64,000 nt of DNA from an uncultured Flavobacteriales bacterium (GCA_949372805.1 CASIBH010000002.1:6123-70122), one strand, 5' to 3'. Counted from the first letter of the stretch, positions 5,383 to 31,884 are shown. Notes: generated by a model not told the origin, from the sequence alone. Made by a program: numbers and translations.

Positions 5383-5877
5383 ATGAAAAAATATTTACTA
5401 ATTATAATATTTTCAATAATATTCTTAGATGTTAAATCTGAAATTCATGTTATTAGTGTTTGGGATGGTTACCTTCAATTTATGCCTTCATCTTTAAATA
5501 TTAATTTAGGAGATACTATTCATTTTCTTCCCTTAGATTCTCCCTTAATGATGCATACAATCACATCATCTAATGTCCCAATGGGTGCTACTTCTTTTGA
5601 TCAAATATGGCAAGCTCCAGCGGATACTTTTTTTCAATACATCCCTCAAGTTGAAGGCTTTTATGAATATGTATGTACTCCACATATTTCGTCTGGAATG
5701 ATTGGTTCTTTTAATGTTATAAATACTGGAACATATGTTTTAGAAGATAATTCAACTAAGAATATTATTAAAAAAATTAATTTAAGTGGGAGGAATACTA
5801 ATGGTGAATTTAATAGACCGTTGTTTTTAATTTATGATGATGGTACAGTTGAAAAAAGAATAATATTTAATAAATAA
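5383..5877 (+). CDS. Secreted plastocyanin/azurin-like blue copper protein with short C-terminal sorting-like tail
   Basis: Signal peptide; F.P..L.I..GDT.., H, and YVCTPHISSGM (type-1 Cu ligands); tail GR-x8-PLFLIYDDGTVEKRII. Confidence 0.85.
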   Translation: MKKYLLIIIFSIIFLDVKSEIHVISVWDGYLQFMPSSLNINLGDTIHFLPLDSPLMMHTITSSNVPMGATSFDQIWQAPADTFFQYIPQVEGFYEYVCTPHISSGMIGSFNVINTGTYVLEDNSTKNIIKKINLSGRNTNGEFNRPLFLIYDDGTVEKRIIFNK

Positions 5878-5879
5878 TT

Positions 5880-7226
5880 TTGACTGATTTTAAAGACATT
5901 AAATTAAATAAGCAATTATTTCAGGCTATTGAAAACCTTGGTTTTGATAAACAAACTCCAATTCAAGAGCATACTTTTTCTAAAATTCTTTCTGGAAACG
6001 ATTTAGTAGGAATAGCGCAAACAGGTACTGGAAAAACTATTGCTTACTGTCTGCCATTACTTCAAGAGCTTATTTTTTCTAATCAAAATAATCCAAGAAT
6101 ATTAATCCTTGTGCCTACTAGAGAATTAGTTGCTCAAGTTGTTCAAACATTGAATGATTTGACAGAATATATTACATGTAGAATTGTTGGGGTTTATGGT
6201 GGTACAAATATGAATACTCAAAAGAAAATGCTTCAAGCTGGTGCTGATATTGTTGTTGCTACTCCAGGAAGATTATATGATCTAGCACTGTGTAGAGCTT
6301 TGCAGCTAAAAGGTGTTAAAAAAGTTGTTATTGATGAAGTAGATATTATGTTAGATTTAGGTTTTAGATTTCAGCTTACTAATATATTTGAGCTTCTTCC
6401 CAACAAGAAACAAAACATTATGTTTTCTGCAACCATGACTGAGGACGTTGATGAAATGATTGAAAGCTATTTTGAAAAGCCAGAAAAAGTTCAAATAGCT
6501 TTAAGTGGTACCCCTCTAGAAAATATTAATCAAGTAAAATATTCAGTACCAAATTTTTATTCAAAATTAAATTTATTAGTTGATTTAATTAAAGATAAAG
6601 ATCTAATGCAAAAGGTTATTGTTTTTGTTTCTAGTAAGAAGATTGCTGATAGTCTAGCCTATTCTTTTGAAGAATTGTTCATTTCTGATTATGCAGTAAT
6701 TCATTCAAATAAATCTCAGAATTATCGTTTTAGATCTATAAATCAGTTTAATGAAGGAAAAGTTAGAGTTTTAATAGCAACAGATATTATTGCTCGTGGA
6801 CTAGACTCTGAGAAAATTACTCATGTAATTAATTTTGACACTCCTACATTTCCTGAAAACTACATGCATAGGATTGGAAGAACAGGTAGGGCAGAGGAAG
6901 TTGGAAATTCTATTCTATTGTTTACCTCAAAAGAAGAGCCATACAAAGATAGAATAGAAGAATTAATGGATTTAGAAATTACTTTATTAGATATTCCCTC
7001 TAATGTTGAATTAACTCAGCAGTTAACCGAAGAGGAACATAGATTAAATAATAAGAGCATCAATAGGAATCTTAAAAAGCAGGATAGAATTAACTCTGGT
7101 TTCCATGAAAAAAGCGCCAAGAACCAGCAAGTGAATGACAGAGATAAATGGCGCAAGGAGCGAGCTAAGAAATATAAAAAATCTAAAACTCGTGGTGATA
7201 AAGGAGCAAACCTTAGAAATAAATAA
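5880..7226 (+). CDS. DEAD/DEAH-box RNA helicase
   Basis: AQTGTGKT, PTRELV, TPGRL, DEVD, SAT, HRIGRTGRA; basic C-terminal tail; TTG start. Confidence 0.95.
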   Translation: MTDFKDIKLNKQLFQAIENLGFDKQTPIQEHTFSKILSGNDLVGIAQTGTGKTIAYCLPLLQELIFSNQNNPRILILVPTRELVAQVVQTLNDLTEYITCRIVGVYGGTNMNTQKKMLQAGADIVVATPGRLYDLALCRALQLKGVKKVVIDEVDIMLDLGFRFQLTNIFELLPNKKQNIMFSATMTEDVDEMIESYFEKPEKVQIALSGTPLENINQVKYSVPNFYSKLNLLVDLIKDKDLMQKVIVFVSSKKIADSLAYSFEELFISDYAVIHSNKSQNYRFRSINQFNEGKVRVLIATDIIARGLDSEKITHVINFDTPTFPENYMHRIGRTGRAEEVGNSILLFTSKEEPYKDRIEELMDLEITLLDIPSNVELTQQLTEEEHRLNNKSINRNLKKQDRINSGFHEKSAKNQQVNDRDKWRKERAKKYKKSKTRGDKGANLRNK

Positions 7227-7270
7227 ATAAGTTTAATATTTATTAGCCTCAAAAAATATTTTCATTTAAT

Positions 7271-7278
7271 TATATTTG
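7271..7278 (+). promoter_or_regulatory. Bacteroidota -7 element
   Basis: TATATTTG about 40 nt upstream of the GH16 gene. Confidence 0.5.
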
Positions 7279-7317
7279 CTTATTGTATTTTATACACTTT
7301 AATTTAAATTTTTTATT

Positions 7318-10300
7318 ATGAAAAAAATACTATTTTTTTTACTTATTTTTTTAACTAATCTCACTCTGTTCTCTCAAAATACAGCACAAGTAACATTTCA
7401 AGTTGATATGAGTGCGGTTACAGATCCTTTTACGACTCCTGAAGTTAATGGAAATTTTAACTCATGGTGTGGAAATTGTTGGGCTATGTCTGATTCAAAT
7501 GGGGATAATATTTGGGATGTTGTAGGTACAATTAATATTAATACTGATTATGAATTTAAATTCTCTGCAGATAGTTGGGGAATTCAAGAAAACTTACTTC
7601 CTGGGTCGCCATGTACTGTAACCAATTTTGGATTTACAAATAGAACTTTAAATGTTTCTGGTGATACTCTTTTACCTGCTTTCTGTTGGGAGTCATGTCT
7701 TGATTGTGGTTCAGGTCCTTCTTCATATAATGTAACATTTGAAGTTGATATGCGTCAAGTTACAGACCCATACACTACACCTGAGGTTAATGGTGATTTT
7801 AATAATTGGTGTGGAAACTGCTGGGCTATGTCTGACAGTAATAATGATAGTATATGGGAATTTACTACAATCTTTGCTCCTGGAGATACTTTAGAATATA
7901 AATACTCTGCTGATAACTGGAGTATTCAAGAAGATCTTGATTCCAATCTGTCATGTATTATTATCAATTATGATCCTTCAGCTCCAAATGGCTATGGCTA
8001 TGTAAATAGACTTTCAGTCATAAATAGTGATACAATTATATCCAGTAGCTGGAATGCATGTTCAAACTTGACTAGTGGGTGTACAGATTCTTTGGCATCT
8101 AATTATGATTCCTCTGCTAATTCCGATGATGGAAGTTGTTTATACAGTGTAGTTTTTAATGTTGACATGAATTGTGATACTTCAACATTTAGTTTTGTTC
8201 ATCTTGAAAGTCCATATTTTGGTTGGTGTGGTGGATGTGTTCCAATGTCAGATCCAGATGGAGATGGTGTTCATACGGTAACTGTTGATCTTCCACTTGG
8301 GGATTTTGAATACAAATATGCTGTAGATAGTTTTGTAGGTCAAGAAAATTTAATTGACGATATGGTAAATGGAGGTAGTTGTGCTCCAATTACAGACTAT
8401 AGCACATATGCTAATAGACAATTAACAGTTTCTACTTCTACTTGGAACTTAGTTTGGGAAGAAAATTTTAGCGGAACAACACTAAATGATTCTGTCTGGA
8501 CACATGAAATTGGCAGTGGAAGTCAGTATGGACTTTGGGGCTGGGGAAATGGAGAGCAGCAGTTTTATCAGCCTTCAAATACAGAAGTTAATAATGGTAA
8601 TCTAAAAATAACGGCACAGCAAGAGCCTAATGGGCTTGTTGACAGTTGGGGTAATACATATAATTTATCTTCGTCAAGAATTATGTCAAAAGATAAAATG
8701 GAGTTCCGATATGGAAAAATTGAGGCAAGAATAAAAACTATTAATGGAGAAGGTTTTTGGCCTGCGTTTTGGATGCTTCCCTCTGGTGGATCTTGGCCTT
8801 GCGATGGTGAAATTGATATTATGGAGCAGTGGGGTTCAGACCTTCCTACAAATAGCACAACTGGAGCGGCTCATATTGGATCATGTCCTGGAACAAGTTC
8901 ATATAATAGCTTTAATCACAACAGTACCAATGGAAATTATGCTGATGATTTTCATACTTATGCAGTTGTATGGCAAGAAGATTACATTGCATGGTATGTA
9001 GACGGGGTAGAAGTACATTCTATTAGTCCCTCAAGCTTCTCATCAATTCCTGGCCAGCACAGTTGGCCTTTTAACTCTAATCAGTGGTACTTGATAATTA
9101 ATCTAGCTATAGATCAAAATGGACCAAATGGAAACACTCAGTTCCCCTCTTCAATTGAAGTAGATTACATAAAAATCTATGATAACAGCGTTAATAATTC
9201 TCAATCACCAAATTATAATTCTCAAACGGGCTTAATTGCTAATGATGTGTATGGGTCATGTGATTCTTGTGTAACATCTGGATTATCACTTACTCAAATT
9301 GATTTACCTATTTCTTGGGATGATTCAACAGTAAATTATACAACCACTCCATTTGGAGGAATAAATTCTAGTGTTATCTCCTGACCCGCTTGATTCTACA
9401 AATAACGTTTTAATGACAGATAGAACTGCTGGATCACCAACTTGGGCAGGTACAACTTTAAGTACTCCAAACGGTTTGGCTAACGCTATTGCTTTTGCAA
9501 GTGGATCTACTAAAATAAGTGGCAAATATTTATTCTCCCTTTTTTGGAGTTGTTGTAAGGTTGAAAGCTGAAGACCATACGGATCCAACAAAGTCAGTAG
9601 AAACTGAAGCGACTATAACTACAGCTAACGGTTGGAGTACATTGGTATTTGATTTTTCTAATGAGGCTCCAGGCACTGCAACAATTGATTTTAGCTATAA
9701 CTATGATATGCTATCTATATTTTTTGATTATGGAAATGTTCCATCTTCAAGTACTATATATTATTTAGATAGTGTTGCTTTTGGAGACTTTATTTTTGGT
9801 CAAAGTGGTTGTACTGATCCAAATGGCATCTAACTATGATCCAATATGCAACCTATGGACGATGGTTCATGTTTTACATGAATTGTTCAAACCCTGTTCC
9901 CTCTGGATTATCCGTTAACTGGACAACAGATACTAAAGCGTCAGTTTCATGGGATAATATGAATGATAGTGCATGTATGGTATTCAAATACTTTATAAGA
10001 TATAGAGTTGACAACTTAGATGGTACCTATGGTAGCTGGGTGACTAAGTCAGCAGGAGTTGGTAATGGTCTATGTAACTTTGGTCTTAATACCACTGAGA
10101 AGAGATTACAGTTCTTAACGCTGCAACTACTTACCAGTTTAAGATGAAAGCTTTCTACTGTGGTGGAACGGAATCAGGATATTCTTCCCCTGCAAGCTTT
10201 ACTACTGGAGCAGATTGTCCTCCAATGACTAACTTAGGTGTACAAACATTTAATGGGAATCAAGCTAAAGCTACATTCTCTTGGGATACTACAGGAGCTT

Positions 10301-10813
10301 ATGTTTTCGCAAGAATTGCATTAAGAGTTGATACTACAGGTGCAGCTTGGGGAACAGCTGGTGGATTTGGTATTTATTACCCACACTATCTGTTAATAAG
10401 TTTGGGCTAACTCCTGGACAGTCATACAGAGCTCAAGGAAGAACATTCTGTGATTCTAATGTTACATCTTATAGATCAACGTGGACGACCCCTGTACTGT
10501 GGACACAACCAGGAACATTGATTAAGAATGGAGGCGGATCAAGTCAGATCAATAACTTAGATGTTTACCCTAACCCATCAAGAGATGTCTTTAACATAAG
10601 CTTTGTATCTCAGAGGAAATACAAGAGCTTAAGAATTAGAGTGATCAATCATAATGGGAGAAGTAAGTGTATGACAGCAAGAGCATAGAGCAGTTTATTG
10701 GTGAGTATACACTAAGCAGATAGACTCTAACTAGATAATTCTAAGGGAGTTTACTTCTTAGAGATCACAATCAAATAATGCGGTAGTAAATAGAAAAACT
10801 AGTTATTCAGTAA
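7318..10813 (+). CDS. Multidomain T9SS-secreted GH16 beta-1,3-glucanase (laminarinase-like); several indels in the 3' part split it into at least 6 ORF fragments (~1,160 aa when joined)
   Basis: Signal peptide; three VTF.VDM...MSD..GD..Y.YK CBM/Ig-like repeats; GH16 WPAFWML and EIDIME catalytic motif; QIDLPISWDD module; GCTD linkers; FN3-like cassette; NNLDVYPNPSRD...GVYFLEI...KLVIQ* CTD ending at TAA 10811-10813. Fragments at 9371, 9519, 9836, 10144 and 10347 match the intact paralogs in order. Confidence 0.85.
9881..10813 (+). repeat. Shared C-terminal cassette, copy A (FN3-like pair + T9SS CTD)
   Basis: Long near-identical DNA runs with 33084-34001 and 35388-36308, e.g. attcaaatactttataagatatagagttgacaacttagatggtac is shared with copy B. 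Confidence 0.9.
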
Positions 10814-12323
10814 TTTTTTTTTAAGAAATAGAATTTAAGGAATGCATTAGCAGATTTTGCTAGTGCATTCTTTTTTTCATCCTTCATTTTGTCAAACATA
10901 TTAATCATAAATTTCATTCGTATATTTTTCTTAAATACCTCTCTATGATTATTTATAAATCTCCAGTATAGACCATCCCAAATATTCGTCCATTCCCCCT
11001 TGGTATTAAAGTCACTCATTTTCTTAATTATAGTTGCTTGAGCTTATGTATGGTTTTGTAGACATAATACCACCGTCCGAGAATTGACTCATTCCGTACA
11101 CATTTGGAACCATTACCCAGTCATAAGAATCTATAAATAATTCCATAAACCACATATATACTTCATCAGGGTCAAAACTCACATAGGAGCATGAAATTAC
11201 CTAATACCATTAACCTTTCAATGTGATGACAATAACTCTTATCTAATGTTTTTTTCAATAGCGGTTGTCTACAGGTAATATTCCAGTAGTTGCATTGTAA
11301 AATGATTTAGGAATCTTTCTTTTAAAGCCAAAGAAATTATTTTTTTCTTTCAAATGATCCTTTAAATATATAAATACCTCTAATAAATTCTCTCCACCCA
11401 ATTATTTGTCTTATAAAACCCTCAAGAGAATTAATAGGAACAAGATTTGAAAACTTTAGTGATTCATTAACTACAACATCAGGTGTTAATAGGCCAGTAT
11501 TTAAAAGAGGGGAAATTTAAACTGTGATTAAGAAATATTTCTTTTTCTACAATTGCATCTTCATAGACGCCAAATTCTGAAAATCTATTTTCTAAAAATT
11601 CCTTCAACCATTCTTTTGCTTGAGTAAATGAAGTTGGATATTGTGGGATTTCAGGAATTCTACCAGGGTTGTCTTTTAAAATGAAGTTTAATATAAGATA
11701 CTGCTTCTGTAAAGTATTTATCAGCTTGTAATTCTTTTATTTTTGGAGGGATTTTATTTTTGGGATATTTTTTTCTATTTTCTGAATCAAATGTCCATTT
11801 TCCACCTTCAGGTTTTCCATCTTTATCAATTAATATTCCATGTTTTTTTCTCTGCTCAGTGTTAAAATGATGAATGTAAAAATTTACTTTTATTATTTCC
11901 AAAAAATTTATCAATCTCAGCAGTAGAATTAAGAAACATTGGACTTTCAAGAATTTCTATTTCAATATTATTTTGATTAGAATAATTATGAATTCTAGAA
12001 TCAAGATAATTATCTTACACAGTTAATGTAAATGATATTATTAAACTTTTCTTTTTTTAAATTTATAATTAAATTTCTTACATCACTAAGTTTAGTTTTT
12101 ATTTTCAATATATGTGATATCTATATCTTTTTCTTTTAAAAAATTCATAGTAGAATTTCATCGAAGAGCGATGCATAATTAGTTTTTGGACATGAAACTT
12201 ATATTGACTAAAAAAAAGGGGCTCTTCAATTAAAAAAAACTCACCTTTTTTTTCTAGTAATGGATTTATCTCAAATAATTGATGTGGGAAAATTAAAATT
12301 GCTGTTTTAGTATCTTTATTCAT
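10807..12323 (-). CDS. Cryptochrome/photolyase family, bacterial (6-4) photolyase type (PhrB/CryB/PromaPL-like, COG3046); frameshifted in this sequence
   Basis: N-terminal LIFPHQLF...EE.LFF....FH.QKL..HR.SM; P.GGKWTFD.ENRK; [17 protein letters not shown]; [28 protein letters not shown]; C-terminal WDGLYWRF. Several indels, e.g. an extra T in gagttttgac near 11175. Confidence 0.85.
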
Positions 12324-13502: not shown

Positions 13503-14526
13503 TTGAAAAATTTAATATTAATCCTATTGTTATTACCAATTTTTTGCTTTTCTCAGCAAACTATTTATTCTAATGTTAATCATAATGGTATTTCTAGAGA
13601 TTATATTCTATATGTACCTCAATCATATGATTCTAATGTTAAAATTCCTTTAGTTTTTTCGCTTCATGGTAAATCTTTAACTAACGTTATAAATATGAAT
13701 ATTACAAATTTTAATGATATTGCTGATACAGCAAATTTTATTGTTGTTTACCCTCAGGGAGAATTAGATGTTTCTTTAACTACTGGCTGGAATGTTGGTT
13801 GGTCCTTCTCAAGTGGGGCTGATGATATTGGATTTATTGATACTATTTTAGAAATTATTTCTTTTCAATATAATATTGATCTAGAAAGAGTTTATAGTAC
13901 AGGTTTTTCAAATGGTGGCTTTATGAGTTACTTACTTGCTTGTCAATTAAGTGATAAGATTGCTGCAATTGCTTCTGTAGCAGGAACTATGACAAATGAC
14001 ACCTACAATAATTGTAATCCAATTCATCCAACTCCTATACTACAAATTCATGGTACAAATGATCTTGTTGTTCCTTACAGCGGTGATCAATCGAAGAAAT
14101 CCGTTGATGTTATTTTAGAATTTTGGAGAAATTATAATAATTGTTCTCTCAATCCAATTATCTCTAATCTTGCAGATATATATATTCTTGATCTGTCCAC
14201 TGTAGATCATTTTTTATTTGAAAATGGAGATAACGGAGTAACAACAGAGCACTTGAAAATTAATAATGGAGGTCATGAATGGCCTGGTTCTTGGGGGTAA
14301 TATGGATATTGACGCTAGTATTGAGATTTGGAACTTTTTCTCTCGATATAATATAAATGGACTGATCTCTAATGTTTCCTCATTATCCATTGATCAGAAC
14401 TTTCAAAATAGATCTCTTATTAATATTTTGGATTTAAATGGTAAAATCACTTCTTCTGATGAAAATAAGCCATTATTTTATTTGTATAGTGATGGGTCAA
14501 TAGAAAAGAAAATTATTATTAAATGA
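13503..14526 (+). CDS. Secreted PHB-depolymerase/LpqC-like alpha/beta esterase with short C-terminal tail; one indel near 14295
   Basis: PLVFSLHG, FIVVYPQG, GFSNGG nucleophile elbow, IHGTND, GGHEWPG. Removing one G from TGGGGGTAA joins ORF 14266-14526 (W-G-N-M-D-I-D-A-S). Confidence 0.85.
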
Positions 14527-15649: not shown

Positions 15650-18600
15650 ATGAAAAAATATACCTTCTTTCTTCTTGCATTTCTTTCTTTTACAATAATC
15701 TTTCATACAACAGTCTGTGCCAGAGTTATAAATATTCAAATCAACACTTTATCTAATGGGTCTGAAATAAGCTGGGACCTTTCCGATTCCTCTTCAATCA
15801 TTTTAATTTCTGGTGGTTCTTATGTTTCTGACACAACATATAATAACTATATTGATCTTTCAAATGGTTGCTATGATTTAAATATGTATGATTCATTTGG
15901 AGATGGATGGAACGGTGGTAATTATTCTATTATAGATTCTTTAACAAGTAATGTATTATATTCTGGAGGTCTATTAAATGGATCTTTTGGATCTGATCCT
16001 CTTTGTTTTGGTCCTTCTGGATGTACTGACCCTAATGCAACAAACTTTGATACCAACGCAATTGTAGATGACGGTTCTTGTACATATTTTACATGTACTG
16101 ATCTTGTTTTAACTATGAATGATTCATATGGTGATGGGTGGAATGGAAATGATTTTTCATTGTTTGATTCAAATGGAAATTTATATTTTACATCAACTCT
16201 AAATAATGGTTCTTTTGGTCTTGACTATGTATGTTTACCAGATGATTGTTATAGTGTAACCTGTAATGGTGGTTCTTGGCAAAATGAAGTTTCTTGGACT
16301 CTTGCAGATACAAACGGGATTGTTTTGCTTTCTGGCGGAGCTCCATTTAGTGGCTCAATATGTTTTCCAACGATTTATGGTTGTACAAATCCTCTTGCTA
16401 ATAATTTTGATTCTTTAGCTAATGTCGACGATGGTTCATGTCTTTTTGACTGTATTGACTCAGATACTTCTGAGAGTTTTGAATCTGGTCAGGGATTTAC
16501 ATGGATGTTAGATCCAAATAATACTGTTGATTGGACTAATCGCTCTGGTGGGACTCCATCTAATTCAACAGGTCCTTCATCAGCTTTTGATGGTTCATTT
16601 TATATGTATACTGAAACTTCACCTACAAGCTCATGGAATAAAGATGCTATTATGTATGTTCCCTGTATTGATGTAAGCGCTTGGACTCAATTAACATTTG
16701 TATTTGCATACCATATGTATGGGTCAGATATTGGTGATTTAAGTATTGATGTTTCATCTGATAGTGGAGCGACTTGGACTCAAGAGTGGACTCTAAGTAG
16801 TAATCAAGGAGATCAGTGGTTTGAAGCATTCGTTGATTTAAGTACTTATTCAGGATCTATTTCTGTTAGAGTGCATGCTGAAACAGGGACTGGGTTTAGA
16901 TCAGATATTGCTATTGATTACTTACGTTTTATGGAAGCCCCAGCTTTTGGTTGTACTGATACCTTAGCATTAAATTATGATACATTAGCAAATTATGATG
17001 ATGGTTCATGTTTGTACCAAACAGGGTGTACTAATCCACTGGCAGATAATTATAATTCTTCTGCAATAATTGATGATGGATCATGTTTATATGGCTGTAT
17101 TATTGCTGATACCTCTGAGAGCTTTGAATCTGGTCAAGGGATCACATGGGAATTAGATCCTAATAATACAGTTGATTGGACAAACCAAAGTGGTGGAACA
17201 CCTTCATTTAACACAGGCCCCTCAGCAGCTTTTGATGGCTCTTATTACATGTATACTGAGGCTTCATCTGGAAATGATAATAAAGAGGCTATTATGTATG
17301 TCTCATGCGTTGATCCTCTTGCATGGAATCAATTATCTTTTGTTTTAGCTTATCATATGCGCGGTACAAATATGGGCTCCTTAACTGTTGATGTTTCAAC
17401 AGATAGTGGAACTACCTGGATTCAGGAATGGACTATTTCAGGAAGTCAGGGTAACCAGTGGAATGAAGTACAAATAGATTTAGGTGCTTACACCCAAGAT
17501 ATATCAGTAAGAGTTCATGCTCAGACAGGTAATGGTTATAGTTCAGATATTGCTATTGATCTTCTTAGATTTGAAGAATACCCTGTTTCTGGATGTATTG
17601 ATCCAACAGCTTCTAATTTTGATCCCTTGGCAACAATTGATGATGGTTCTTGTTTGTATAATGGATGTACTGATGTTTATGCTGCTAACTATTGTAGTGG
17701 TTGTAATGTTACCGATAACACATTATGTATATATTATTTGTGTAGTGGTCTTAATTTTACAGATAATTTTGAAGGAAATAGTTTGTCTTCAAATGGATGG
17801 ACTGCATTTTCTGGGTCTTCAGCTTCTGTTACGCTAACAAGCTCAAATTCTATAGCTGATAGTGTAAGTGTAGAATTTGAAGGGGGCTCTGGAGGTACAT
17901 GGTCGGGCTATCAAACGGAATCAGATGCCTATGCCAACACATTACATATTGCTTCAGTATCAAAATGTATTGATTTTACTACAATAGGAAATAATGATTC
18001 TATAGCCCTAACTTTTGAAACGAAAATGTATTCTGGCTTTTTAAGTGAGTATTCTTGGATAAGAGTAAAAGTTGACGGTAATGTTATCTCTGATAATTTA
18101 GGGAATACTTCATATAATAATTTAACCCTTCCAATAGATACTTCTGTTGATAATACACTTTTAGTTTATGATCTAACTGCATTTGCAGGTGGGGATCATT
18201 ATATAACTTTTGAATCTGTAAATAAATATGGTGCCGGCTCTGGGTCATTAAATAATGTCTGGATAGATAATGTAAATTTTGCAATCAATTTAATTAGTGG
18301 ATGTATAGATACAAGTGCTGTTAATTATAATTCATTAGCACAGGTTGATGATGGATCTTGTTTATATACATGCTTTAATAATTCAATTTACTATTCAATA
18401 GAAACTGATTTAAATCCTTTAGAGTGCTCATGGGATATATCTGATATTTCAGGTAATATTCTTTTTTCATATGGTAATTATTCTGCTCCACAAACAATTG
18501 AAAATGATTCTTTTTGTATTGTAGATGGTTGTTATATATTAAATCTTTATGACTCTGCTGGTAATGGTTGGGGCTCAGGAAATTTCGGAAGTGTTTCTTT

Positions 18601-19903
18601 ATTTGATAGTATTGGAACAATCCTTGCAAATGGAACATTAAATAATGGCTCTAACTCAACTTTTGGTTTTAATATAGGAAGTTGTAATCTTCAAAACCCT
18701 GGCTGTACAGATAGTCTGTCATCCAATTATAATTTATTAGCTGATATTGATAATGGTAGTTGCTGTATTGATGGATGCATGGACTTAGCATCCGTAAATT
18801 ATGATTCTTTGGCTACATGTGATGATGGTTCTTGCTTACCATTCATTTTTGGATGTACAGATGCAAATGCATTAAACTATTATCCTGGTGCCAATGCTGA
18901 TGACGGTTCATGTATTTATGCTGGATGTACTGATTCAAGTGCAAATAATTATAACCCTAATGCATCTATTGATGATGGTTCATGTACTTACTCTCAATCA
19001 TGTTCATCACCTAAACCTTCAGGTCTTAATGCTTATGATATAATTGATACTAGAGCCAAAATATCTTGGGATAATATGAATGATTCTTCATGTTTAGTAT
19101 TAAAATATTTTGTAAGATACAGAGAGGTTGGAACTAATTCGTGGACTACAAAATCTGCTGGTGTGGGTAATGGATTATGTGTGTTTGGTCTAAATACTGT
19201 GGAAAAACAACTTCTAAATTTAAGTGCAAATACTTTATATGAGTTTAAGATGAAAGCGTTCTATTGTGGTGGAACTTCATCTAATTATTCTTCTCCTGTT
19301 CAGTTTTTAACTTTAGATGATTGTCCAGAAATGACAAACCTTTCTGCTCAAACTTTTAATAATAATCTAAACAAGGCTAGGTTTTCTTGGGATACAACTG
19401 GTTCATATGTTTTTGCACGAATTATTTTAAGAGTAGATACTGTTGGTTCTCAGTGGCAAACTGCTGGAGGTTTTGGAGTTTATTTCCCTACTTTTAATGT
19501 TAATAAATTTGGTTTAAGTTCAGGAGAGTCATACAGAGCGCAGGGGAGAACATTTTGTAATTCAAATATAACAGCATACAGATCTCCTACTTGGACAACA
19601 CCAATTTTCTGGACACAGCCCGGAAGTATTAAGTTAATCGGAGGTGATATTATAAATAACTTAAACGTTTATCCAAACCCTTCTTCTGGTAAATTCAGTG
19701 TATCATTTATAAGTGAAAAATTACAATCTTTAGAAGTTTCAATTTCAGATGTTATGGGCAAGATTATTTATAAGGAAGTTAGAGAAATTTTCGTGGGAGA
19801 ATATATTAAGACTATTGAAATTAATGATCATAGTAAGGGGCTGTACTTTTTAGAAATTAAAAATGATATAGGAGTTATTAATAAGAAAATTATTGTTCAG
19901 TAA
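15650..19903 (+). CDS. Large T9SS type A cargo, adhesin-like: DSxGDGWNG modules, two MAM domains, jelly-roll module, 11 GCxD linkers, FN3-like cassette, CTD
   Basis: Signal peptide; MAM motifs TPS..TGP..A.DG..YMYTE, F.YHM.G..G.L, QG..W, SDIAID; C-terminal VYPNPS...GLYFLEI...KKIIVQ. Confidence 0.9.
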   Translation: MKKYTFFLLAFLSFTIIFHTTVCARVINIQINTLSNGSEISWDLSDSSSIILISGGSYVSDTTYNNYIDLSNGCYDLNMYDSFGDGWNGGNYSIIDSLTSNVLYSGGLLNGSFGSDPLCFGPSGCTDPNATNFDTNAIVDDGSCTYFTCTDLVLTMNDSYGDGWNGNDFSLFDSNGNLYFTSTLNNGSFGLDYVCLPDDCYSVTCNGGSWQNEVSWTLADTNGIVLLSGGAPFSGSICFPTIYGCTNPLANNFDSLANVDDGSCLFDCIDSDTSESFESGQGFTWMLDPNNTVDWTNRSGGTPSNSTGPSSAFDGSFYMYTETSPTSSWNKDAIMYVPCIDVSAWTQLTFVFAYHMYGSDIGDLSIDVSSDSGATWTQEWTLSSNQGDQWFEAFVDLSTYSGSISVRVHAETGTGFRSDIAIDYLRFMEAPAFGCTDTLALNYDTLANYDDGSCLYQTGCTNPLADNYNSSAIIDDGSCLYGCIIADTSESFESGQGITWELDPNNTVDWTNQSGGTPSFNTGPSAAFDGSYYMYTEASSGNDNKEAIMYVSCVDPLAWNQLSFVLAYHMRGTNMGSLTVDVSTDSGTTWIQEWTISGSQGNQWNEVQIDLGAYTQDISVRVHAQTGNGYSSDIAIDLLRFEEYPVSGCIDPTASNFDPLATIDDGSCLYNGCTDVYAANYCSGCNVTDNTLCIYYLCSGLNFTDNFEGNSLSSNGWTAFSGSSASVTLTSSNSIADSVSVEFEGGSGGTWSGYQTESDAYANTLHIASVSKCIDFTTIGNNDSIALTFETKMYSGFLSEYSWIRVKVDGNVISDNLGNTSYNNLTLPIDTSVDNTLLVYDLTAFAGGDHYITFESVNKYGAGSGSLNNVWIDNVNFAINLISGCIDTSAVNYNSLAQVDDGSCLYTCFNNSIYYSIETDLNPLECSWDISDISGNILFSYGNYSAPQTIENDSFCIVDGCYILNLYDSAGNGWGSGNFGSVSLFDSIGTILANGTLNNGSNSTFGFNIGSCNLQNPGCTDSLSSNYNLLADIDNGSCCIDGCMDLASVNYDSLATCDDGSCLPFIFGCTDANALNYYPGANADDGSCIYAGCTDSSANNYNPNASIDDGSCTYSQSCSSPKPSGLNAYDIIDTRAKISWDNMNDSSCLVLKYFVRYREVGTNSWTTKSAGVGNGLCVFGLNTVEKQLLNLSANTLYEFKMKAFYCGGTSSNYSSPVQFLTLDDCPEMTNLSAQTFNNNLNKARFSWDTTGSYVFARIILRVDTVGSQWQTAGGFGVYFPTFNVNKFGLSSGESYRAQGRTFCNSNITAYRSPTWTTPIFWTQPGSIKLIGGDIINNLNVYPNPSSGKFSVSFISEKLQSLEVSISDVMGKIIYKEVREIFVGEYIKTIEINDHSKGLYFLEIKNDIGVINKKIIVQ

Positions 19904-20012: not shown

Positions 20013-21461
20013 ATGAAAAAAATATTATTTGTAATTGCTTGTTTTTTAATCTCTTATAGCTCTAGTGCTACCCATTTAATGGGCGGTCAGATATCTACTT
20101 CTTATATTAGTTCAGATTCCTCTGGAGCGTCCTTATATACTGTAGAATTAGATTTATATAGAGATACTATTGGCGTTGATGTTGATCTAAATCAAGATCT
20201 TGATATCTATCAATTAGATCCTTTTACAGGTATTTACAGTCTTTTATATTCTATGTCTCCAGATTTTGACACTACAACTGGTGGTCTTGTTAATTCCATC
20301 TCTGTTTATGGAGTTGAGGTGTATAGATTTGTTGACACTCTTTCATTTGCTTCAGATGGTTATTATAAAATTGAATGGACTCAGTGTTGTAGAAATTTTG
20401 CAATTGTTAATATGTCTAGTCCTGGAGCGGAATATATGGATTTATCAACATATGTAAATGTTGATAGTGCCGATCCTAACTCTTCACCTTTATTTTTAAC
20501 TCCTCCTGTTGCTTATTTACCTATAACACAACTTTGGAACTACAATCCACTCCCTTTTGATCCCGATGGAGATTCTTTGTCATGGTCGTTAGTTGATCCT
20601 TTAAGTAGTGGTGTGTCTGTTATGGGGTATGAATCATTATCTGATACGCTATTATATTCTGATCCAGCTGGAGTCTTTTCTTTAGACTCTGTTACTGGCG
20701 AGATTTCATGGCAAGCAACAATGGTTGGTAATTTTGTTATTTCTCTAATAATTGAAGAATTTAGAAATGGAATTAAAATTGGAGAAATGAGAAGAGATAT
20801 GCAGTTTATAACTGTTGTGCCAGATTCTAGTTCTATGCCACAATTTTCTTACATTCAAAATCTTCCTGCCAATTCTGCTGGCTATCCCTATGTAAAGCTT
20901 CTTTATGGCCAAAATTATCAATTAGATTTGATAGGAAGTGATAATGATCCTGGAGATATTTTAACTATGGAAGCATATGGAGAATCTTTTGGTTTAAATA
21001 ACTCATCTTCTTTATTTAATAGTTTCCCTTATGGAAGTGGTAATGATATAATGGGAATGTTTAATTGGTCTCCTGATTTCTCTCATGTAAGGCCAGAGCC
21101 TTATATTAATGTCTTTAGAGTATCTGATGGTTTATTTACTTTTGATGCTACAATACAGTTTGAAGTTGTTTCTTCACTAAGTTCTTTAAATGAATTTGAA
21201 GGAGTTACTGTTAATGATATATATCCCAACCCTTCAAATGGAAACTTTATTTTATCTCTAAACCTTGATAAACCCCAAGAAATATATGTTGAAATATACA
21301 ATTTGCTTGGGCTGGAAGTCTCTAAACAAAAAATAAATTTATCTTCCGGGAACCATATATTATCTAGAAACAATCATCTTTCTAGTGGTCAGTATATAGT
21401 CAATATTTTAAATAATAGAGGGGTATCAATTACATCTAAAAAGTTAATTGTTACTAATTAG
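20013..21461 (+). CDS. T9SS type A cargo of unknown function (ATHxMGG.I N-terminal family)
   Basis: Signal peptide; ATHLMGGQI, CCRN, NSSP.F..PP, DPDGDSL and RRDMQF motifs; IYPNPS...GQY...KKLIV CTD. Confidence 0.8.
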   Translation: MKKILFVIACFLISYSSSATHLMGGQISTSYISSDSSGASLYTVELDLYRDTIGVDVDLNQDLDIYQLDPFTGIYSLLYSMSPDFDTTTGGLVNSISVYGVEVYRFVDTLSFASDGYYKIEWTQCCRNFAIVNMSSPGAEYMDLSTYVNVDSADPNSSPLFLTPPVAYLPITQLWNYNPLPFDPDGDSLSWSLVDPLSSGVSVMGYESLSDTLLYSDPAGVFSLDSVTGEISWQATMVGNFVISLIIEEFRNGIKIGEMRRDMQFITVVPDSSSMPQFSYIQNLPANSAGYPYVKLLYGQNYQLDLIGSDNDPGDILTMEAYGESFGLNNSSSLFNSFPYGSGNDIMGMFNWSPDFSHVRPEPYINVFRVSDGLFTFDATIQFEVVSSLSSLNEFEGVTVNDIYPNPSNGNFILSLNLDKPQEIYVEIYNLLGLEVSKQKINLSSGNHILSRNNHLSSGQYIVNILNNRGVSITSKKLIVTN

Positions 21462-24205: not shown

Positions 24206-24229
24206 ATTTTTTATTTATTGGTTAAAGTA

Positions 24230-25501: not shown

Positions 25502-25562
25502 AATAACTTTTTAAATCATTATTTAAAAATTCTATCTTTAAGTATTAATTTTACAAAAAAAA

Positions 25563-26225: not shown

Positions 26226-26235
26226 ATAAATAAAA

Positions 26236-26910
26236 ATGAAAAAAATATTAATAATATTATGTCTTATACTTCAAATTTCATCTGTTAAGTCACAAACTCA
26301 GGTTGATATACATACAAATTATGGTGACATAAGACTTGAGTTATATGATGCCCTTGTTCCAAACACTGTAAACAATTTTGTTTCACTTATAAATCAAGGT
26401 TTTTATGATGGAGTAATTTTTCATAGGGTTATTGATAATTTCATGATTCAGGGTGGAGATGGTTTTCCAGCTCCTCCATCAATAATGGATGAATTTGATA
26501 GTACCCTGTCAAATGTTCAAAAAACTATTTCTATGGCTAATTCAGGTCCCAATACCGGTACATGTCAGTTCTTTATTAATCTTGTTGACAACACCTATCT
26601 AGACTTTGATAAAGCCCCTCTTACTTCCAAGCACCCTGTTTTTGGTATAACTGTCAGTGGGTTTAATGTTGTACAGGCAATTGGTGAAGTGCAAACAAAC
26701 TTTAATGATGTACCATATGTAGATGTAGTTATGGATAGTGTAAGGATTGTTAATTCAAATGTTGGACTAGAAAATATTATTTCACCTGATAGAAATAAAT
26801 TAATTGATATTATTGATTTTTCTGGTAAGTCTTTAAATAGAAAATCTTCTTTTCCTCTTATTTATATTTATGAAAATGGTTTAGTAGAAAAGAAAATCAT
26901 TGTTAAGTAA
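26236..26910 (+). CDS. Secreted cyclophilin-type peptidyl-prolyl isomerase with short C-terminal tail
   Basis: Signal peptide; FYDGVIFHRVIDNFMIQGGD, SMANSGPNT..QFFIN, HPVFG; tail GK-x8-PLIYIYENGLVEKKIIVK. Confidence 0.92.
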   Translation: MKKILIILCLILQISSVKSQTQVDIHTNYGDIRLELYDALVPNTVNNFVSLINQGFYDGVIFHRVIDNFMIQGGDGFPAPPSIMDEFDSTLSNVQKTISMANSGPNTGTCQFFINLVDNTYLDFDKAPLTSKHPVFGITVSGFNVVQAIGEVQTNFNDVPYVDVVMDSVRIVNSNVGLENIISPDRNKLIDIIDFSGKSLNRKSSFPLIYIYENGLVEKKIIVK

Positions 26911-26925
26911 ATCTCTTTCTTATTT

Positions 26926-27288
26926 ATGATTAAGAAAATTTCAATTTATATTATTTCTTTCGCTTATATCTTTGTAGGAATAAAACATTTTACAGATCCT
27001 CATTTTTTTTCACCTATTGTTCCTGATTATTTACCTTATCCTCTTGCTCTTGTTTATATAAGCGGTTTTTTTGAGGTTTTTCTTGGAGCTTTAATTCTAT
27101 TTTCTAAGTACAGAAAAATAGCTGCATGGGGTTTGATCTTACTTCTTATTGCAGTCTTTCCAGCTAATATTTTTTTAGTTCAAAATGTAGATGCTCAAAT
27201 AGCTTTGAATGTAACAAAAGATTTTGCTATTTATAGATTACCCTTTCAATTACTATTCATTTTACTGGCTTATTGGCACACAAAATAA
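26926..27288 (+). CDS. DoxX-like membrane protein
   Basis: G..HF..P......P.Y.P.P..LVY.SG..E...G and AVFPANI...RLP.Q motifs. Confidence 0.8.
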   Translation: MIKKISIYIISFAYIFVGIKHFTDPHFFSPIVPDYLPYPLALVYISGFFEVFLGALILFSKYRKIAAWGLILLLIAVFPANIFLVQNVDAQIALNVTKDFAIYRLPFQLLFILLAYWHTK

Positions 27289-27293
27289 AACAT

Positions 27294-27719
27294 ATGATAT
27301 ATAACAGAACTCTTACTAACTACGACCAAGAAATTGAAATTAATAATATTGTAGGTAAACCATTTTCTTTTTTCCAAAGTCTAAAGCTTATGGGAATTGG
27401 TTCCAGTAGATTTATTATTGAATCAGTTTCAACTAATTTTACTGATATAGTTAATGAAGTAGCTGATATTAATTATTGTAACATTGAATTAAGACCAAAC
27501 GGTGTTATTATTAATGTTACCCAGCAGTTAAATTTATTTTCATGGGTGATTCCATACTATCAGCTAGTTGTTTTTGATTCAGAAACTTTTAGTATTCACG
27601 CCGCTGGAGGCTTTATTAAAATGGTTAAGAATAAAAACTATTCTAATAACAAATCCTTTATTAAAAAGATGTATAAATTAAAAACTAGCTATAGTGCTAA
27701 AAATAATTTAGCAGTTTAG
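27294..27719 (+). CDS. Conserved hypothetical protein
   Basis: ATG at 27294 after the upstream stop; VGKPFS......M.G.GS, CNIELRPNG and W.IPYY.L motifs. Confidence 0.7.
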   Translation: MIYNRTLTNYDQEIEINNIVGKPFSFFQSLKLMGIGSSRFIIESVSTNFTDIVNEVADINYCNIELRPNGVIINVTQQLNLFSWVIPYYQLVVFDSETFSIHAAGGFIKMVKNKNYSNNKSFIKKMYKLKTSYSAKNNLAV

Positions 27720-28679
27720 TTATTTAAGGATTATTTTCTTCTCTATAGTTCCATCTTTATATATGTAAAATAATGGGCCCTTAGATGAGTTATTTGATTC
27801 CTTACCTAGCATATTTATTATTTTATGTACTTCTTTATTGCTGAAGTCTATTTGATTAATACTACTTAAAGAATAGTTGTAAAATGCTGTATCAGAAACA
27901 CATCCTTGAGCATCTGTTACTAATAGCCAGAAGATTCCATTTCCAGTAGGGTCGATTGTTGATGTAGTTTCTCCTGTACTCCAATTGTATGAATACGGTG
28001 CAGTACCTGCAAAGGCTCCACCTTCTAAATCTAGGTTGTCAGCAGTTATGTATGCTTTAGGGCTATCATCTGTTTTAACTAACAAGTGAATTCTTCCTCT
28101 TTCAACAGGAGGCTCATGAAAATAAGATCCCGATGGAGGTGATGTCGTAGATAGTGAAGATTGTACACCACACCAGTGTATCCGAGTCATTTTACCAGCC
28201 AATGAAATAGCGCTATCTGAAGTAGTATAAGAATTAAACATTTCTCCAGAGCTTATCTCATTTTTAGCTCCCACCACAGCATAATACTTATTTTTCTCAA
28301 TAATAACGCTACAGCTCCCCCAGCCATAAGGCATGTTTTGAGCCTGAAAAAGAAGTGTATGTGGGTTAGTTACTCCAGCCAAAAGATCTGTATAATCGTA
28401 TGGCATTGTATCTGTATTATTTAATGCAGTAAACTCAATTATTTCTATAGACTGATGCTGAGCAAAAGCTCCAGGGCCTTGAGGGTCTCCATCTCCAGCT
28501 TTAAATCCTACTATTTCAAAACCTGATAGGGCTTTAAACCAAAAACCTCTTGTTCTATTAAGCTGTGCATATGGGGTGCTTTCAGGGCCAAGAATAAGAG
28601 AATCCGTTTGTTCGCAATTTATTTGAGAGAATGAAAAGAATGATGTCGATAAGAAAAATAATATAGTAAGTATTCGCAT
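27720..28679 (-). CDS. Secreted protein: unknown N-terminal domain, SprB-like repeat, short C-terminal tail
   Basis: Signal peptide; GTAPYSYNWSTGETT...VTDAQGC SprB-type repeat; tail GK-x8-PLFYIYKDGTIEKKIILK. Confidence 0.75.
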   Translation of the reverse strand: MRILTILFFLSTSFFSFSQINCEQTDSLILGPESTPYAQLNRTRGFWFKALSGFEIVGFKAGDGDPQGPGAFAQHQSIEIIEFTALNNTDTMPYDYTDLLAGVTNPHTLLFQAQNMPYGWGSCSVIIEKNKYYAVVGAKNEISSGEMFNSYTTSDSAISLAGKMTRIHWCGVQSSLSTTSPPSGSYFHEPPVERGRIHLLVKTDDSPKAYITADNLDLEGGAFAGTAPYSYNWSTGETTSTIDPTGNGIFWLLVTDAQGCVSDTAFYNYSLSSINQIDFSNKEVHKIINMLGKESNNSSKGPLFYIYKDGTIEKKIILK

Positions 28680-28850
28680 TATTAAAATTTAAGATTTCCT
28701 CAAAAATAATTAATTTTTATTTAATTTTAAAAACTGATATTTTTATCATTAAATATGAACAGAAATTTTAAAATATTAATCTATTGTTTCTTATTAGGAA
28801 TGACTGTTGTCTACCTTTATTTTAGAATTGGTAATCTTTAAAAAAAAATT

Positions 28851-29033
28851 ATGAGTTATTTCCAACAAAAAGCAGATTTCAATCATAAAATAGGAATCAA
28901 GATTTATATGATTTCAACTACCTTACTTTGTGTGAAGTTTTTCCCCCAATTAATATCTCTTGATTGGTATTACTATGCCGTGATCTTACTATTATCTTAT
29001 TCCTACTGTATTAAAAGAGCTTTTATGAGTTAA
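28851..29033 (+). CDS. Small hypothetical membrane protein
   Basis: 60 aa with two hydrophobic segments; A-rich start context; stop 1 nt before the next ATG. Confidence 0.45.
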   Translation: MSYFQQKADFNHKIGIKIYMISTTLLCVKFFPQLISLDWYYYAVILLLSYSYCIKRAFMS

Positions 29034-29034
29034 T

Positions 29035-29835
29035 ATGAGGTTAATCATATTTTTTTTATTTGCTAATTTCCTCTATGGTGCTAATGTTGAAACAATTAGT
29101 GTTTTTAGTATGTCGATGAACAAGAAAATAAAAAATTTGGTTATTACTCCTGATCAATATGCAGATGTTTCTTTATCTACTGTATACCTTCTTCATGGGG
29201 CAGGAGGGAGTTATTTAGATTGGAACACAAAGGTTCAAGGATTAGAACAATATTGTGATAAGCTTAATATTATTCTTATTTGTCCCGATGGCGGAGGTAA
29301 TAGTTGGTACTTTGACAGCCCAATAGATTCAAATTATAGATATGAAACTTATATCTGTGAAGAACTAGTTGATTTTATTGATAATAAATACCTAACAAAA
29401 AAAGACCCAAAGTTTAGGGCTATAAGTGGATTGAGTATGGGAGGTCATGGAGCCTTGTATTTAGCTATTAAAAACCAAAATATTTTTGGATTAGCTGGAA
29501 GCATGAGCGGTGGCTTAGATATAAGAGGGTTCTCTAATAATTGGAATCTTTCAGATCGACTAGGAAATATTAAAGAAAACCCTAAGAACTGGGAAAATAA
29601 TACTGTTATAAAATTAATAGATAGAATTAAAATAAAGGATTTAAAGCTAATTATTGATTGTGGAAAAGATGATTTTTTCCTAGATGTAAATAATGCATTT
29701 AATAGTGAGTTAACAGAAAGAAATATTAATCATATTTACAGAATTAAAGAGGGCTCACATAACTGGATTTATTGGAGAAAATCTATCTTTGAACATCTAA
29801 ATTTTTTTACTGAAAATTTTAATAAAACTATATGA
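29035..29835 (+). CDS. Alpha/beta-hydrolase esterase family protein (XynC/FrmB-like)
   Basis: [41 protein letters not shown] motifs. Confidence 0.9.
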
Positions 29836-30281
29836 AAAATTATTTTATCCTATTACTTTTTCTTCTAATATCTTCTAACTCTTTCGGCCAGAGTTCTGAG
29901 ATTGATTACTTTAAAAAATTAAATTCTAAAGAGAAAAATGTTATCGTTAATAAAGGAACAGAATATCCTTTTACCGGGGAATATGATAAGCATTTTGAAC
30001 TGGGTGTCTATCATTGTAAGGCTTGCGATACACCATTGTATCACTCTTCTTTTAAATTTAAATCAAATTGTGGATGGCCATCATTTGATAATGAAATAAA
30101 AGGTGCAATAAAAAGAAATTATGATTATGATTTAGGCTATAGAAGAACTGAGATATGTTGTTCTAAATGTGGAGGTCACCTGGGTCATGTGTTTGAGGGA
30201 GAGAAGCTTACGGAAAAAAATATTCGTCATTGTGTGAATTCTATTTCTCTTGTTTTTAAAGCTTTAGAGCCTAAGAAATAA
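29832..30281 (+). CDS. msrB: Peptide-methionine (R)-S-oxide reductase MsrB, with signal peptide
   Basis: GTE.PFTG.Y, C..C, CGWPSF, R.EI.C..C.GHLGHVF, RHCVNS.SL motifs. Confidence 0.95.
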
Positions 30282-30320
30282 TTATAAACTTACCTATCTT
30301 TGTAAAAAAAAATATTTGTC

Positions 30321-30821
30321 ATGAAAAAAATCTTTATAGCTACCCTCTCATTTTTTATATTCTTTAGCGCTCAAGCCCAAGTTCTTCATACAGTTAATGG
30401 TGGTAACTTTTACTATAGTCCACAAACCTTAACTATTAATGTTGGTGATACAGTTAGATGGGTGAACAATGGAGGTTTTCACAATGTTAATTTTGATATA
30501 AATACAATTAGTGGATCAAGTTTTTCTAATCCAGAATCTTTTTCATCCACGCCTACTAATGATGTAGACATGTACACTTACGTTTTTACAATACCTGGAA
30601 CGTACGACTATGATTGTTCTGTTGGTCAGCATGCTGCTAATGGAATGGTTGGTACAATTATTGTTAATAGTTCTACAGCAGTTTCAGAGCTTTCATTAAT
30701 AAATAAAGAGGTCCTAAACATTTATAGCTTATCAGGAAAAAAAGTTTCTCAATCATTTAATATTCCCTTAATCTATCAATTTAGTGATGGTTCAATTGAA
30801 AAAAAGGTTCTCGTAAAATAA
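30321..30821 (+). CDS. Secreted plastocyanin/azurin-like protein with short C-terminal tail
   Basis: P..LTINVGDTVRW.N..G.HNV and YDYDCSVGQHAANGM; tail GK-x8-PLIYQFSDGSIEKKVLVK. Confidence 0.87.
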   Translation: MKKIFIATLSFFIFFSAQAQVLHTVNGGNFYYSPQTLTINVGDTVRWVNNGGFHNVNFDINTISGSSFSNPESFSSTPTNDVDMYTYVFTIPGTYDYDCSVGQHAANGMVGTIIVNSSTAVSELSLINKEVLNIYSLSGKKVSQSFNIPLIYQFSDGSIEKKVLVK

Positions 30822-30828
30822 TTTTTAA

Positions 30829-31884
30829 ATGCAAAAAAAATCTTTTTTCTATAGATCATTATTTCCTTTTGTATTGTCCTTGTTTATTAGTTTTTCTGCT
30901 TACAGCCAAAGCCTTAAAGACGTAAATTTTGGTTCAGAGTATAGTCTAGATGTTATTAGCTGGAACTTAGAATGGTTTCCAAAAAATGGCCAGACAACTA
31001 TTGATTCTTTAGCCCTGGTAATTAAATCATTAAAGCCAGAAGTTTTAGCCTTACAAGAAATAAATGATGTTTCTGCATTCAATTCCTTACTTACTCAATT
31101 GCCCCAATATGTAGGTAATTTTTCAAGTTTTTCTAATTTAAAGCTTGCCTTTATTTATAAGAAAAGTTTAACCATAAATAATATTTTTACTATTTCTGGC
31201 AATTCAACATATAATTTTGCTGGTAGACCTCCTTATTGTATTGAGATTGAGTATGATAATAACATTTATTATGTTATAAATAACCACTTAAAATGTTGTG
31301 GTGATGGCATCCTTCAGACTTCTGATTCATCTGATGAAGAATTTAGAAGGTTTAGTGCGATGAATATTATTAAGAACTATATTGAAGATAATCTAGATAA
31401 TAAAAGAGTCATAGTTTTGGGTGATTTAAATGATATTCTAACAGATAACTTGAGCAATAATATTTTCCAAGATATTATAAATGATAGCACTAATTTCTAT
31501 TTTGCTGATACCGAGATTGCTTATGGTTCTTCCTCAAACTGGTCATACCCAAATTGGCCTTCGCATTTAGATCATATTTTAATTTCTAATGAGCTATTCT
31601 CTATCTTTAATAGCGATAGTAGCTATATTGAATCTATTCAGATTGATGACTATTTATCTGGTGGTTTTTCTTCCTATGATAATTTATTATCTGATCATAT
31701 GCCTATAGGTATTAGTCTTTACACGGGAAATTTTTCTGCTGTAATAGATGAAAATAAAAGTTTGAAAAATAAATTAGTTCAAAGAATTAATCTCGCAGGA
31801 AAAAATATTAATCATGTTTTTAATCAGCCGATTATAAATATTTATGATAATGGAGATTCAGAAAAAATAATGTTTGTAAAATGA
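30829..31884 (+). CDS. Secreted endonuclease/exonuclease/phosphatase (DNase I-like) with short C-terminal tail
   Basis: SWNLEWFP, ALQEI, NNHLKCC, LGDLND, SHLDHILI and SDH.P catalytic motifs. Confidence 0.9.
   Translation: MQKKSFFYRSLFPFVLSLFISFSAYSQSLKDVNFGSEYSLDVISWNLEWFPKNGQTTIDSLALVIKSLKPEVLALQEINDVSAFNSLLTQLPQYVGNFSSFSNLKLAFIYKKSLTINNIFTISGNSTYNFAGRPPYCIEIEYDNNIYYVINNHLKCCGDGILQTSDSSDEEFRRFSAMNIIKNYIEDNLDNKRVIVLGDLNDILTDNLSNNIFQDIINDSTNFYFADTEIAYGSSSNWSYPNWPSHLDHILISNELFSIFNSDSSYIESIQIDDYLSGGFSSYDNLLSDHMPIGISLYTGNFSAVIDENKSLKNKLVQRINLAGKNINHVFNQPIINIYDNGDSEKIMFVK

Follow-up and report, generated by a model that had tools for sequence, protein, structure and literature searches.

The type A C-terminal domains (CTDs) that mark type IX secretion system (T9SS) cargo comprise about 72-88 residues. 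In the solved examples a four-stranded sheet (b4-b3-b6-b7) is paired with a three-stranded one (b5-b2-b1), and functional motifs lie in the loop L-b3b4 and at the C-terminus (C-t.) (PMC11285876). Shorter CTDs are described from Prevotella intermedia, which has 48 of them (43-55 amino acids (aa); defined as <60 aa) beside 32 long ones; the short form is a single three-stranded sheet made of strands 3, 6 and 7, with motifs B, D and E kept (PMC11969387). The same paper gives cleavage sites for five short CTDs, a glycosylated mature C-terminus on six cargo proteins representing both CTD kinds, and AlphaFold3 models in which short and long CTDs sit alike in PorV; its authors name P. intermedia as the sole species reported with both CTD lengths (PMC11969387). 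For HBP35 of Porphyromonas gingivalis, the last 22 residues (the two last strands) were reported to be absolutely required for secretion of a green fluorescent protein fusion (cited via PMC11969387 and PMC11285876), and type B CTDs (TIGR04131) are known to use dedicated PorP/SprF-like shuttles (PMC12618676). Here we analyse a 64,000-nucleotide stretch of DNA (hereafter the window; G000:C2:6123-70122) from an uncultured Flavobacteriales bacterium, whose genome assembly of 1.17 Mb in 25 contigs has 30% G+C and is 64% complete and 1.2% contaminated. Six genes located between positions 5383 and 31884 of the window encode proteins that end in a tail of about 40 residues, which we call the mini-tail. 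Sequence comparison and structure modelling indicate that the mini-tail is very probably a functional type A T9SS C-terminal signal reduced to a minimum, constituting one sequence family carried by unrelated enzymes.

Translation of the window, complemented by a frame search for the esterase, placed the tail at the end of all six proteins, which are listed below with their strand; E values refer to a hidden Markov model (HMM) built from the six tails.

5383..5877, plus strand: secreted cupredoxin, 164 aa (PF00127, 31.5 bits); tail at 5731-5874 (tail HMM E 1.4e-21)
13503..14526, plus strand: polyhydroxybutyrate (PHB)-depolymerase/carboxylesterase-type esterase (PF02230 and PF10503 on the N-terminal part); tail at 14380-14523 (tail HMM E 2.5e-22)
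26236..26910, plus strand: secreted cyclophilin-type peptidyl-prolyl isomerase, 224 aa (PF00160, 136 bits, ending at residue 170); tail at 26764-26907
27720..28679, minus strand: secreted protein of no clear family, 319 aa; tail at 27723-27866 (tail HMM E 8.1e-22)
30321..30821, plus strand: secreted cupredoxin, 166 aa (PF00127, 48.7 bits); tail at 30675-30818
30829..31884, plus strand: secreted endonuclease/exonuclease/phosphatase-family (EEP) protein, 351 aa (PF03372, 52 bits); tail at 31738-31881 (tail HMM E 4e-21)

The constant spacing reported by the first-pass annotation of this DNA was confirmed, as all six tails fit the pattern [DNS]-h-x-G-[KR]-x8-P-x4-[YF]-x-[DN]-G-x2-E-K-x4-5-K-stop, with x8 invariable. 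The name "SprB-repeat protein" given there to the product of the gene at 27720 is dropped here, as it goes back to a sub-threshold Pfam match (15.4 bits against a cut-off of 28). None of the six proteins was matched by TIGR04183, TIGR04131 or PF18962 even at E<=10, in scans that were not exhaustive since the HMMER filters discard most matches above about 0.1, and the tails do not reach the curated type A cut-offs (23 bits for TIGR04183 and 27 bits for PF18962). A +/-1 frameshift at a G5 run near 14292-14300 (within 14257-14330 of the window) divides the esterase gene in two: the upstream part encodes the signal peptide, and the last 75 residues, tail included, are read in the other frame. Three relatives have homologues whose frames are open over 339-371 aa, and this copy therefore represents either a sequencing error or a fresh pseudogene.

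The tail HMM was searched against the 6,922 six-frame open reading frames (ORFs) of at least 40 aa in the genome. Round one returned 17 ORFs at E<=1.8e-6, the next match being at E=0.3, and round two added two divergent tails, both at ORF ends (E 1.1e-12 and 1.5e-11), for a total of 19. Every one of the 19 tails occupies the extreme C-terminus, and 17 of the proteins have an obvious signal peptide starting from the first Met. The 13 tail proteins encoded outside the window include M14, M23 and M43 peptidases, esterases, and CotH, arylsulfotransferase-like, Kelch, BNR, PKD and similar proteins; PF18962 matched none of these 13 at E<=0.001, and the NCBI names seen for mini-tail proteins carry no T9SS label. 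In scans of the same genome at E<=1, TIGR04183 gave 48 matches (38 over the cut-off) and PF18962 gave 46 (36 in the cut-off tally), none of which coincides with any of the 19 tail positions.

Alignment of the 19 tails revealed a small set of well-kept residues. The Gly of motif B, in the L-beta3-beta4 loop, is present in all of them and is followed by K or R in 15, Q in three and S in one, and D or N stands three residues ahead of it in 18/19. The late Lys at alignment column 50, in the last strand (motif E / C-t.), is likewise found in 18/19, and the Gly of the DG turn in 17/19. The motif Pro, treated as fixed in the first-pass annotation, holds for the six window tails but is not general genome-wide, where only 9/19 have it.

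To compare the mini-tail with long CTDs of the same genome, we used a reference set of 33 of the 38 TIGR04183 matches over the cut-off; the five left out were a stop-broken copy, the CTD of PorU, the CTD-like end of a 1393-aa protein, one internal match and one ending 11 residues before the stop. Aligning the 19 tails with these 33 CTDs by hhalign resulted in a score of 26.9 (P 2.9e-5), in which tail strand one and the G[KR] pair with the "v.I.n..GK.V" strand of the long CTD, the tail end pairs with the last strands, and a single gap of 17 columns spans the "id.s.l.sGiY" region. The tail alignment scored 12.8 in reverse, and scores after column shuffling were far lower than the true one (60 shuffles, mean 8.8, maximum 14.5); composition therefore does not explain the match.

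Orthologues with exchanged tails point in the same direction. For the cyclophilin, 14 loci with Bacteroidota-type titles were compared, out of 80 loci returned. The four closest (64-65% identity; titled "uncultured Bacteroidetes AG-426-M23", "Flavobacteriales SI034_bin35", "Cryomorphaceae bin.103" and "Flavobacteriales Z_MB123_1") end in the mini-tail, and eight more distant ones bear, at the same position, a full PNP...GxY type A CTD; these eight derive from metagenome-assembled genomes (MAGs), one each of Flavobacteriales, Cytophagales, Bacteroidetes and Bacteroidia and four of Flavipsychrobacter. The remaining two are without a CTD. For the cupredoxin at 30321, most of the 120 homologues listed are 162-167 aa long, and those aligned, a subset, carry the mini-tail; six among the 120 matches listed are 211-213 aa long and carry PF18962. 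Long and short cupredoxins aligned by MAFFT differ by two clean deletions of about 29 and 18 columns. In an alignment of 88 cupredoxin sequences G139 and G157 never vary, and 90% or more of the sequences keep D156, K161 and K162. Two protein pairs within the genome itself also differ in tail type, one of CotH proteins (34% identity over 553 aa, E 8e-78) and one of M43 peptidases (35% identity over 336 aa).

Taken with the T9SS machinery of the genome (below), the hhalign result and the orthologue swaps bear out the first-pass view that this is a T9SS signal, derived from type A by truncation and missed by existing models. The comparisons support an origin of the mini-tail from the type A CTD by deletion, in which it appears to have kept strand 3 with the DxxG[KR] loop and strands 6-7, and to have lost strands 1-2 (including the YPNP strand) and strands 4-5. 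The pattern [STNG]x[IVL]x[NDEQ][ILVA] occurs upstream of 9/19 short and 14/32 long tails, against 7.4% of 5,000 random 22-residue windows; since the pattern was picked post hoc, a common linker or cleavage motif upstream of both tail classes is suggestive only.

Two further observations concern the genes compared above. Secreted-type cyclophilins with 45-52% identity to that of the window (L032, L033, L035, L037 and L053) lie on contigs labelled as Methanosarcinales, Nanoarchaeota or Euryarchaeota MAGs, and in four of the five the match begins at one of the query's first two residues; they could be mis-binned contigs or the outcome of gene transfer. At G000:C1:118618-125982, three tandem long-CTD paralogues of about 620 aa (41-45% identical) are interrupted after the first by an arylsulfotransferase-like mini-tail gene. 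This arrangement was considered as a set of paralogues with different tails and rejected, as the mini-tail gene is unrelated to the three long-CTD paralogues.

The long CTDs encoded in the window itself are as follows.

19667..19900, plus strand: type A CTD of a 1417-aa protein (15650-19903); TIGR04183 46.7 bits, PF18962 55 bits
21219..21452, plus strand: type A CTD of a 482-aa protein (20013-21461); TIGR04183 43.5 bits
33087..33320, minus strand: type A CTD of a 704-aa protein (33084-35198); TIGR04183 55.7 bits, PF18962 66.4 bits
35391..35624, minus strand: type A CTD of a 2110-aa protein; TIGR04183 52.1 bits
10563-10772: type A CTD match broken by one TAG and two TAA; TIGR04183 27.8 bits, over the cut-off

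The first-pass annotation was thus right in counting five such CTDs, one of which (10563-10772) is broken by the three stops. The stretch 9519-10688 of the window contains nothing but short ORFs, and this copy is probably what is left of a T9SS cargo gene that has decayed.

AlphaFold2 (AF2) models were computed for the cupredoxin at 30321 from the 88-sequence alignment. The mean predicted local distance difference test (pLDDT) score was 76.4, with tail residues 131-166 at 88-95 and the linker (119-126) below 50, and the tail forms a three-strand sheet (131-135, 149-154 and 159-164). When the tail was folded alone from 19 sequences, the same three strands were obtained (mean pLDDT 76.4). A complex of the tail with PorV was then modelled and scored by ipSAE, for which the benchmark mark is reached by 116/157 solved complexes and 2/215 mismatched pairs. 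The PorV-tail model scored 0.88 (runs 0.89, 0.88 and 0.88) and the best of three controls 0.00; at least 81% of the contacts were common to the runs, with a partner pLDDT of at least 73. Expected error is lowest for contacts made by the G[KR] loop (tail residues 19-23) and by the terminal K-K-I (residues 43-45). The model supports binding of the tail to the canonical PorV.

Compared with the published description of the P. intermedia short CTDs, rather than by sequence alignment, the mini-tail has a similar size (a 36-residue fold plus about ten linker residues, vs 43-55 aa), keeps strands 3, 6 and 7, the motif B loop and the terminal basic motif, coexists with long CTDs (19 + 38 here, 48 + 32 there) and is modelled into the same PorV. 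The two differ in their hosts, marine Flavobacteriales here and oral Bacteroidales there. They also differ in motif D, whose GxY/GxN is strongly conserved in P. intermedia whereas the Gly position is Pro or variable here, and in detection, since long-CTD HMMs find most of the P. intermedia short CTDs (PMC11969387) whereas TIGR04183 and PF18962 find none of the mini-tails. Family-specific traits of the Flavobacteriales mini-tail are its DG turn and the E-K-K in the last hairpin. Cleavage and glycosylation were measured in P. intermedia (PMC11969387), whereas cleavage of the mini-tail is predicted by analogy. Like type A CTDs as described in PMC11285876, the mini-tail stands at the extreme C-terminus of Sec-exported cargo, has the L-beta3-beta4 Gly and a C-terminal strand motif and is encoded with the same machinery; unlike them it has about 40 instead of about 72-88 residues and three strands instead of a 4+3 beta-sandwich, and is without YPNP and GxY. 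With the HBP35 CTD it shares a signal carried by less than seven strands, although that CTD is naturally five-stranded and belongs to one protein, and the mini-tail is three-stranded and belongs to many. Like the type B CTD it would be a T9SS C-terminal signal that coexists with type A, but the type B CTD is an unrelated sequence family with dedicated shuttles; TIGR04131 matched none of the six window proteins at E<=10. Searches of open-access papers and bioRxiv turned up no account of short CTDs in Flavobacteriales or in any other organism except P. intermedia. As far as the published description of P. intermedia goes, the architecture is already known from that species; the new finding is a distinct variant, marine and very widespread, which standard annotation overlooks.

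The genome encodes SprA (2653 bits), PorQ (298 bits) and PorU (1277 bits), the last directly adjoining PorV (505 bits). Throughout a clade of small-genome marine Flavobacteriales, the mini-tail takes the place of the long CTD on unrelated enzymes. Judging from the N-termini, a Sec signal peptide would bring the cargo to the periplasm; the mini-tail would then pass through the SprA translocon and, according to the complex model, be bound by the sole canonical PorV with the G[KR] loop inserted into the barrel. By analogy with P. intermedia's short CTDs, PorU may cut the disordered linker upstream of the tail, after which the cargo would be freed or attached to the cell surface.

Several points weigh against reading the mini-tail as a type A signal. 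Motif D (GxY) is not kept, its aligned position being Pro in 9/19 tails and variable in the others (a Tyr stands a few residues past the lost position in 15/19), the hhalign probability is just 73.7%, and no curated type A model recognises the tail. The seven-stranded 4+3 beta-sandwich is absent from the AF2 models, which give three strands both in context and alone. The tail profile had no match among PDB sequences at E<=10, and Foldseek of the 48-residue tail model returned none in PDB at E<=0.001; rows at E >=1.2 are at chance level, and we give no weight to the RemA CTD of a solved T9SS complex, found at rank 20 (E 3.3). The complex model was fed small alignments (5 rows for PorV and 19 for the tail), and since a T9SS complex with bound CTD has been solved (PDB 8GL6), its score may mirror likeness to known structures rather than binding by this copy. 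Finally, secretion of the tail-bearing proteins and their cleavage by PorU are inferred from computation only.

The distribution of the tail was surveyed in 300 genomes of the order (E<=1e-5, with no more than 23 candidates per genome being scored) and 400 genomes of the phylum (each at least 80% complete). In the source family the tail was found in 24/24 genomes of a first sample and 42/42 of the order survey. Four further families have it regularly (f2 2/2, f8 16/16, f9 20/21 and f15 17/17) and two sparsely (f12 1/7 and f16 3/41), and at this threshold the order survey did not find it in f3 (0/5), f4 (0/42), f5 (0/4), f6 (0/1), f7 (0/41), f10 (0/9), f11 (0/2), f13 (0/5), f14 (0/2), f17 (0/41) and f18 (0/2). 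Genomes of the five regular-carrier families measure 0.8-2.3 Mb, and the three single-match f16 genomes 2.0-4.0 Mb. In the phylum sample, in which the presence of P. intermedia was not established, 3/400 genomes had one match each; two of these are clear mini-tails, on a beta-lactamase-like and a GH16-plus-CBM protein, in genomes of 5-6 Mb. Since the tail profile drew a blank in 397 of the 400, the mini-tail likely arose independently of the P. intermedia short CTDs. Among 1.84 billion representative proteins the profile matches 3,839 clusters at E<=1e-3, of which 725 remain at E<=1e-10. The match reaches the final or next-to-last residue in 145 of the top 150 and comes to within five residues of the end in 149.

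Five genomes of the source family were counted for both tail classes (tails at E<=1e-3, long CTDs at E<=1e-4). Each has 19-52 tails beside 41-63 long CTDs, the tails making up about 30-47% of the CTD cargo. As the curated models miss the former and find the latter, the same share, about 30-47%, of the secreted proteins with a CTD tag is overlooked in this clade. Two of these genomes of about 2 Mb, G011 and G022, each assembled in 1-2 contigs, hold about 110 CTD-tagged genes each (63+46 and 58+52), a very high coding share for T9SS cargo.

It was also proposed in the first-pass annotation that the tail is a subclass of T9SS signal serving small cargo, possibly with a shuttle or fate of its own (release rather than anchoring). 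We consider a separate class of this kind unlikely. Cargo in this genome is indeed smaller, with a median of 367 aa for tail proteins (164-588, n=19, the frameshifted esterase entered as 340 aa) vs 605 aa for long-CTD proteins (89-2108, n=33; Mann-Whitney p=0.011); in relatives, however, the tail also occurs on much longer open frames (966-1340 aa), so that the small-cargo part of the proposal is weakly supported, describing a tendency and no rule. The failure of curated type A models to match the tail and the documented shuttles of type B CTDs (PMC12618676) would also accord with a separate class, as would a third PorV/PorQ-family barrel in the genome (NF033709, 134 bits), which is not an equivalog of PorV, PorQ or PorV2. 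This barrel is the sole extra member of its family and does not track the tail: it is present in 143/301 genomes of the order and is equally common in families almost or wholly without the tail (39/41 vs 3/41 for the tail in f16, 7/7 vs 1/7 in f12, 5/5 vs 0/5 in f13 and 2/2 vs 0/2 in f18), and it was rejected as a dedicated tail shuttle. Exactly one PorV over the cut-off was found in each of five family genomes, and the tail is modelled into this canonical PorV through the same motifs as long CTDs. Moreover, in three genomes of 5-6 Mb from other families of the class there is one tail gene each, for which a dedicated shuttle would be unprofitable. The shuttle part of the proposal is accordingly not upheld.

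At G000:C20:17361-22642 (L115 362-5646) a 1393-aa protein with a CTD-like / FlgD-type Ig end is followed by this third barrel of 363 aa, and the pair is conserved; the two may constitute a third attachment-complex-like pair.

Less probable again is that the tail is a small C-terminal binding or anchoring module, no secretion signal at all, whose resemblance to a CTD is due to chance. The missing matches to CTD models and to PDB structures and sequences, together with the absent GxY, are what such a module would predict. Against this, the tail stands exactly where orthologues bear a type A CTD, its profile likeness to the long CTD is above every shuffle, and its carriers are signal-peptide enzymes of kinds typical of T9SS cargo (M14, M23, M43, esterases, CotH, PKD and nuclease). 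That the tails are decayed, non-functional CTD remnants in shrinking genomes, as the small carrier genomes and the one frameshifted gene of the six in the window might suggest, is the least credible explanation, given a single conserved sequence family of 3,839 clusters, tail residues that are invariant or nearly so over 88 cupredoxin homologues, a confident AF2 fold and the occurrence of the tail in all 42 sampled family genomes.

Returning to the mini-tail as a minimal type A signal, we put forward a broader proposal only tentatively, and hold it to be somewhat less probable than its contrary: in a clade of small-genome marine Flavobacteriales, and separately from P. intermedia, the T9SS signal would once more have been pared to the core that binds PorV, giving a 36-residue module of single origin, without GxY, that was swapped onto a third to nearly half of the cargo. 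If the mini-tail is such a signal, it would be the smallest natural T9SS signal and a natural experiment on what PorV and the translocon need; a signal made of strand 3, the loop and strands 6-7 without GxY would narrow what they must recognise. Prediction of T9SS cargo normally uses TIGR04183 or PF18962, which miss the mini-tail, a gap that a dedicated tail HMM would mend, and the mini-tail offers engineers of Bacteroidota a compact candidate tag for export. Short CTDs are, on this evidence, not confined to one oral species. In the marine Flavobacteriales, the driver may be the cost of a discarded tag on small enzymes in nutrient-poor water, which would fit the small-cargo bias.

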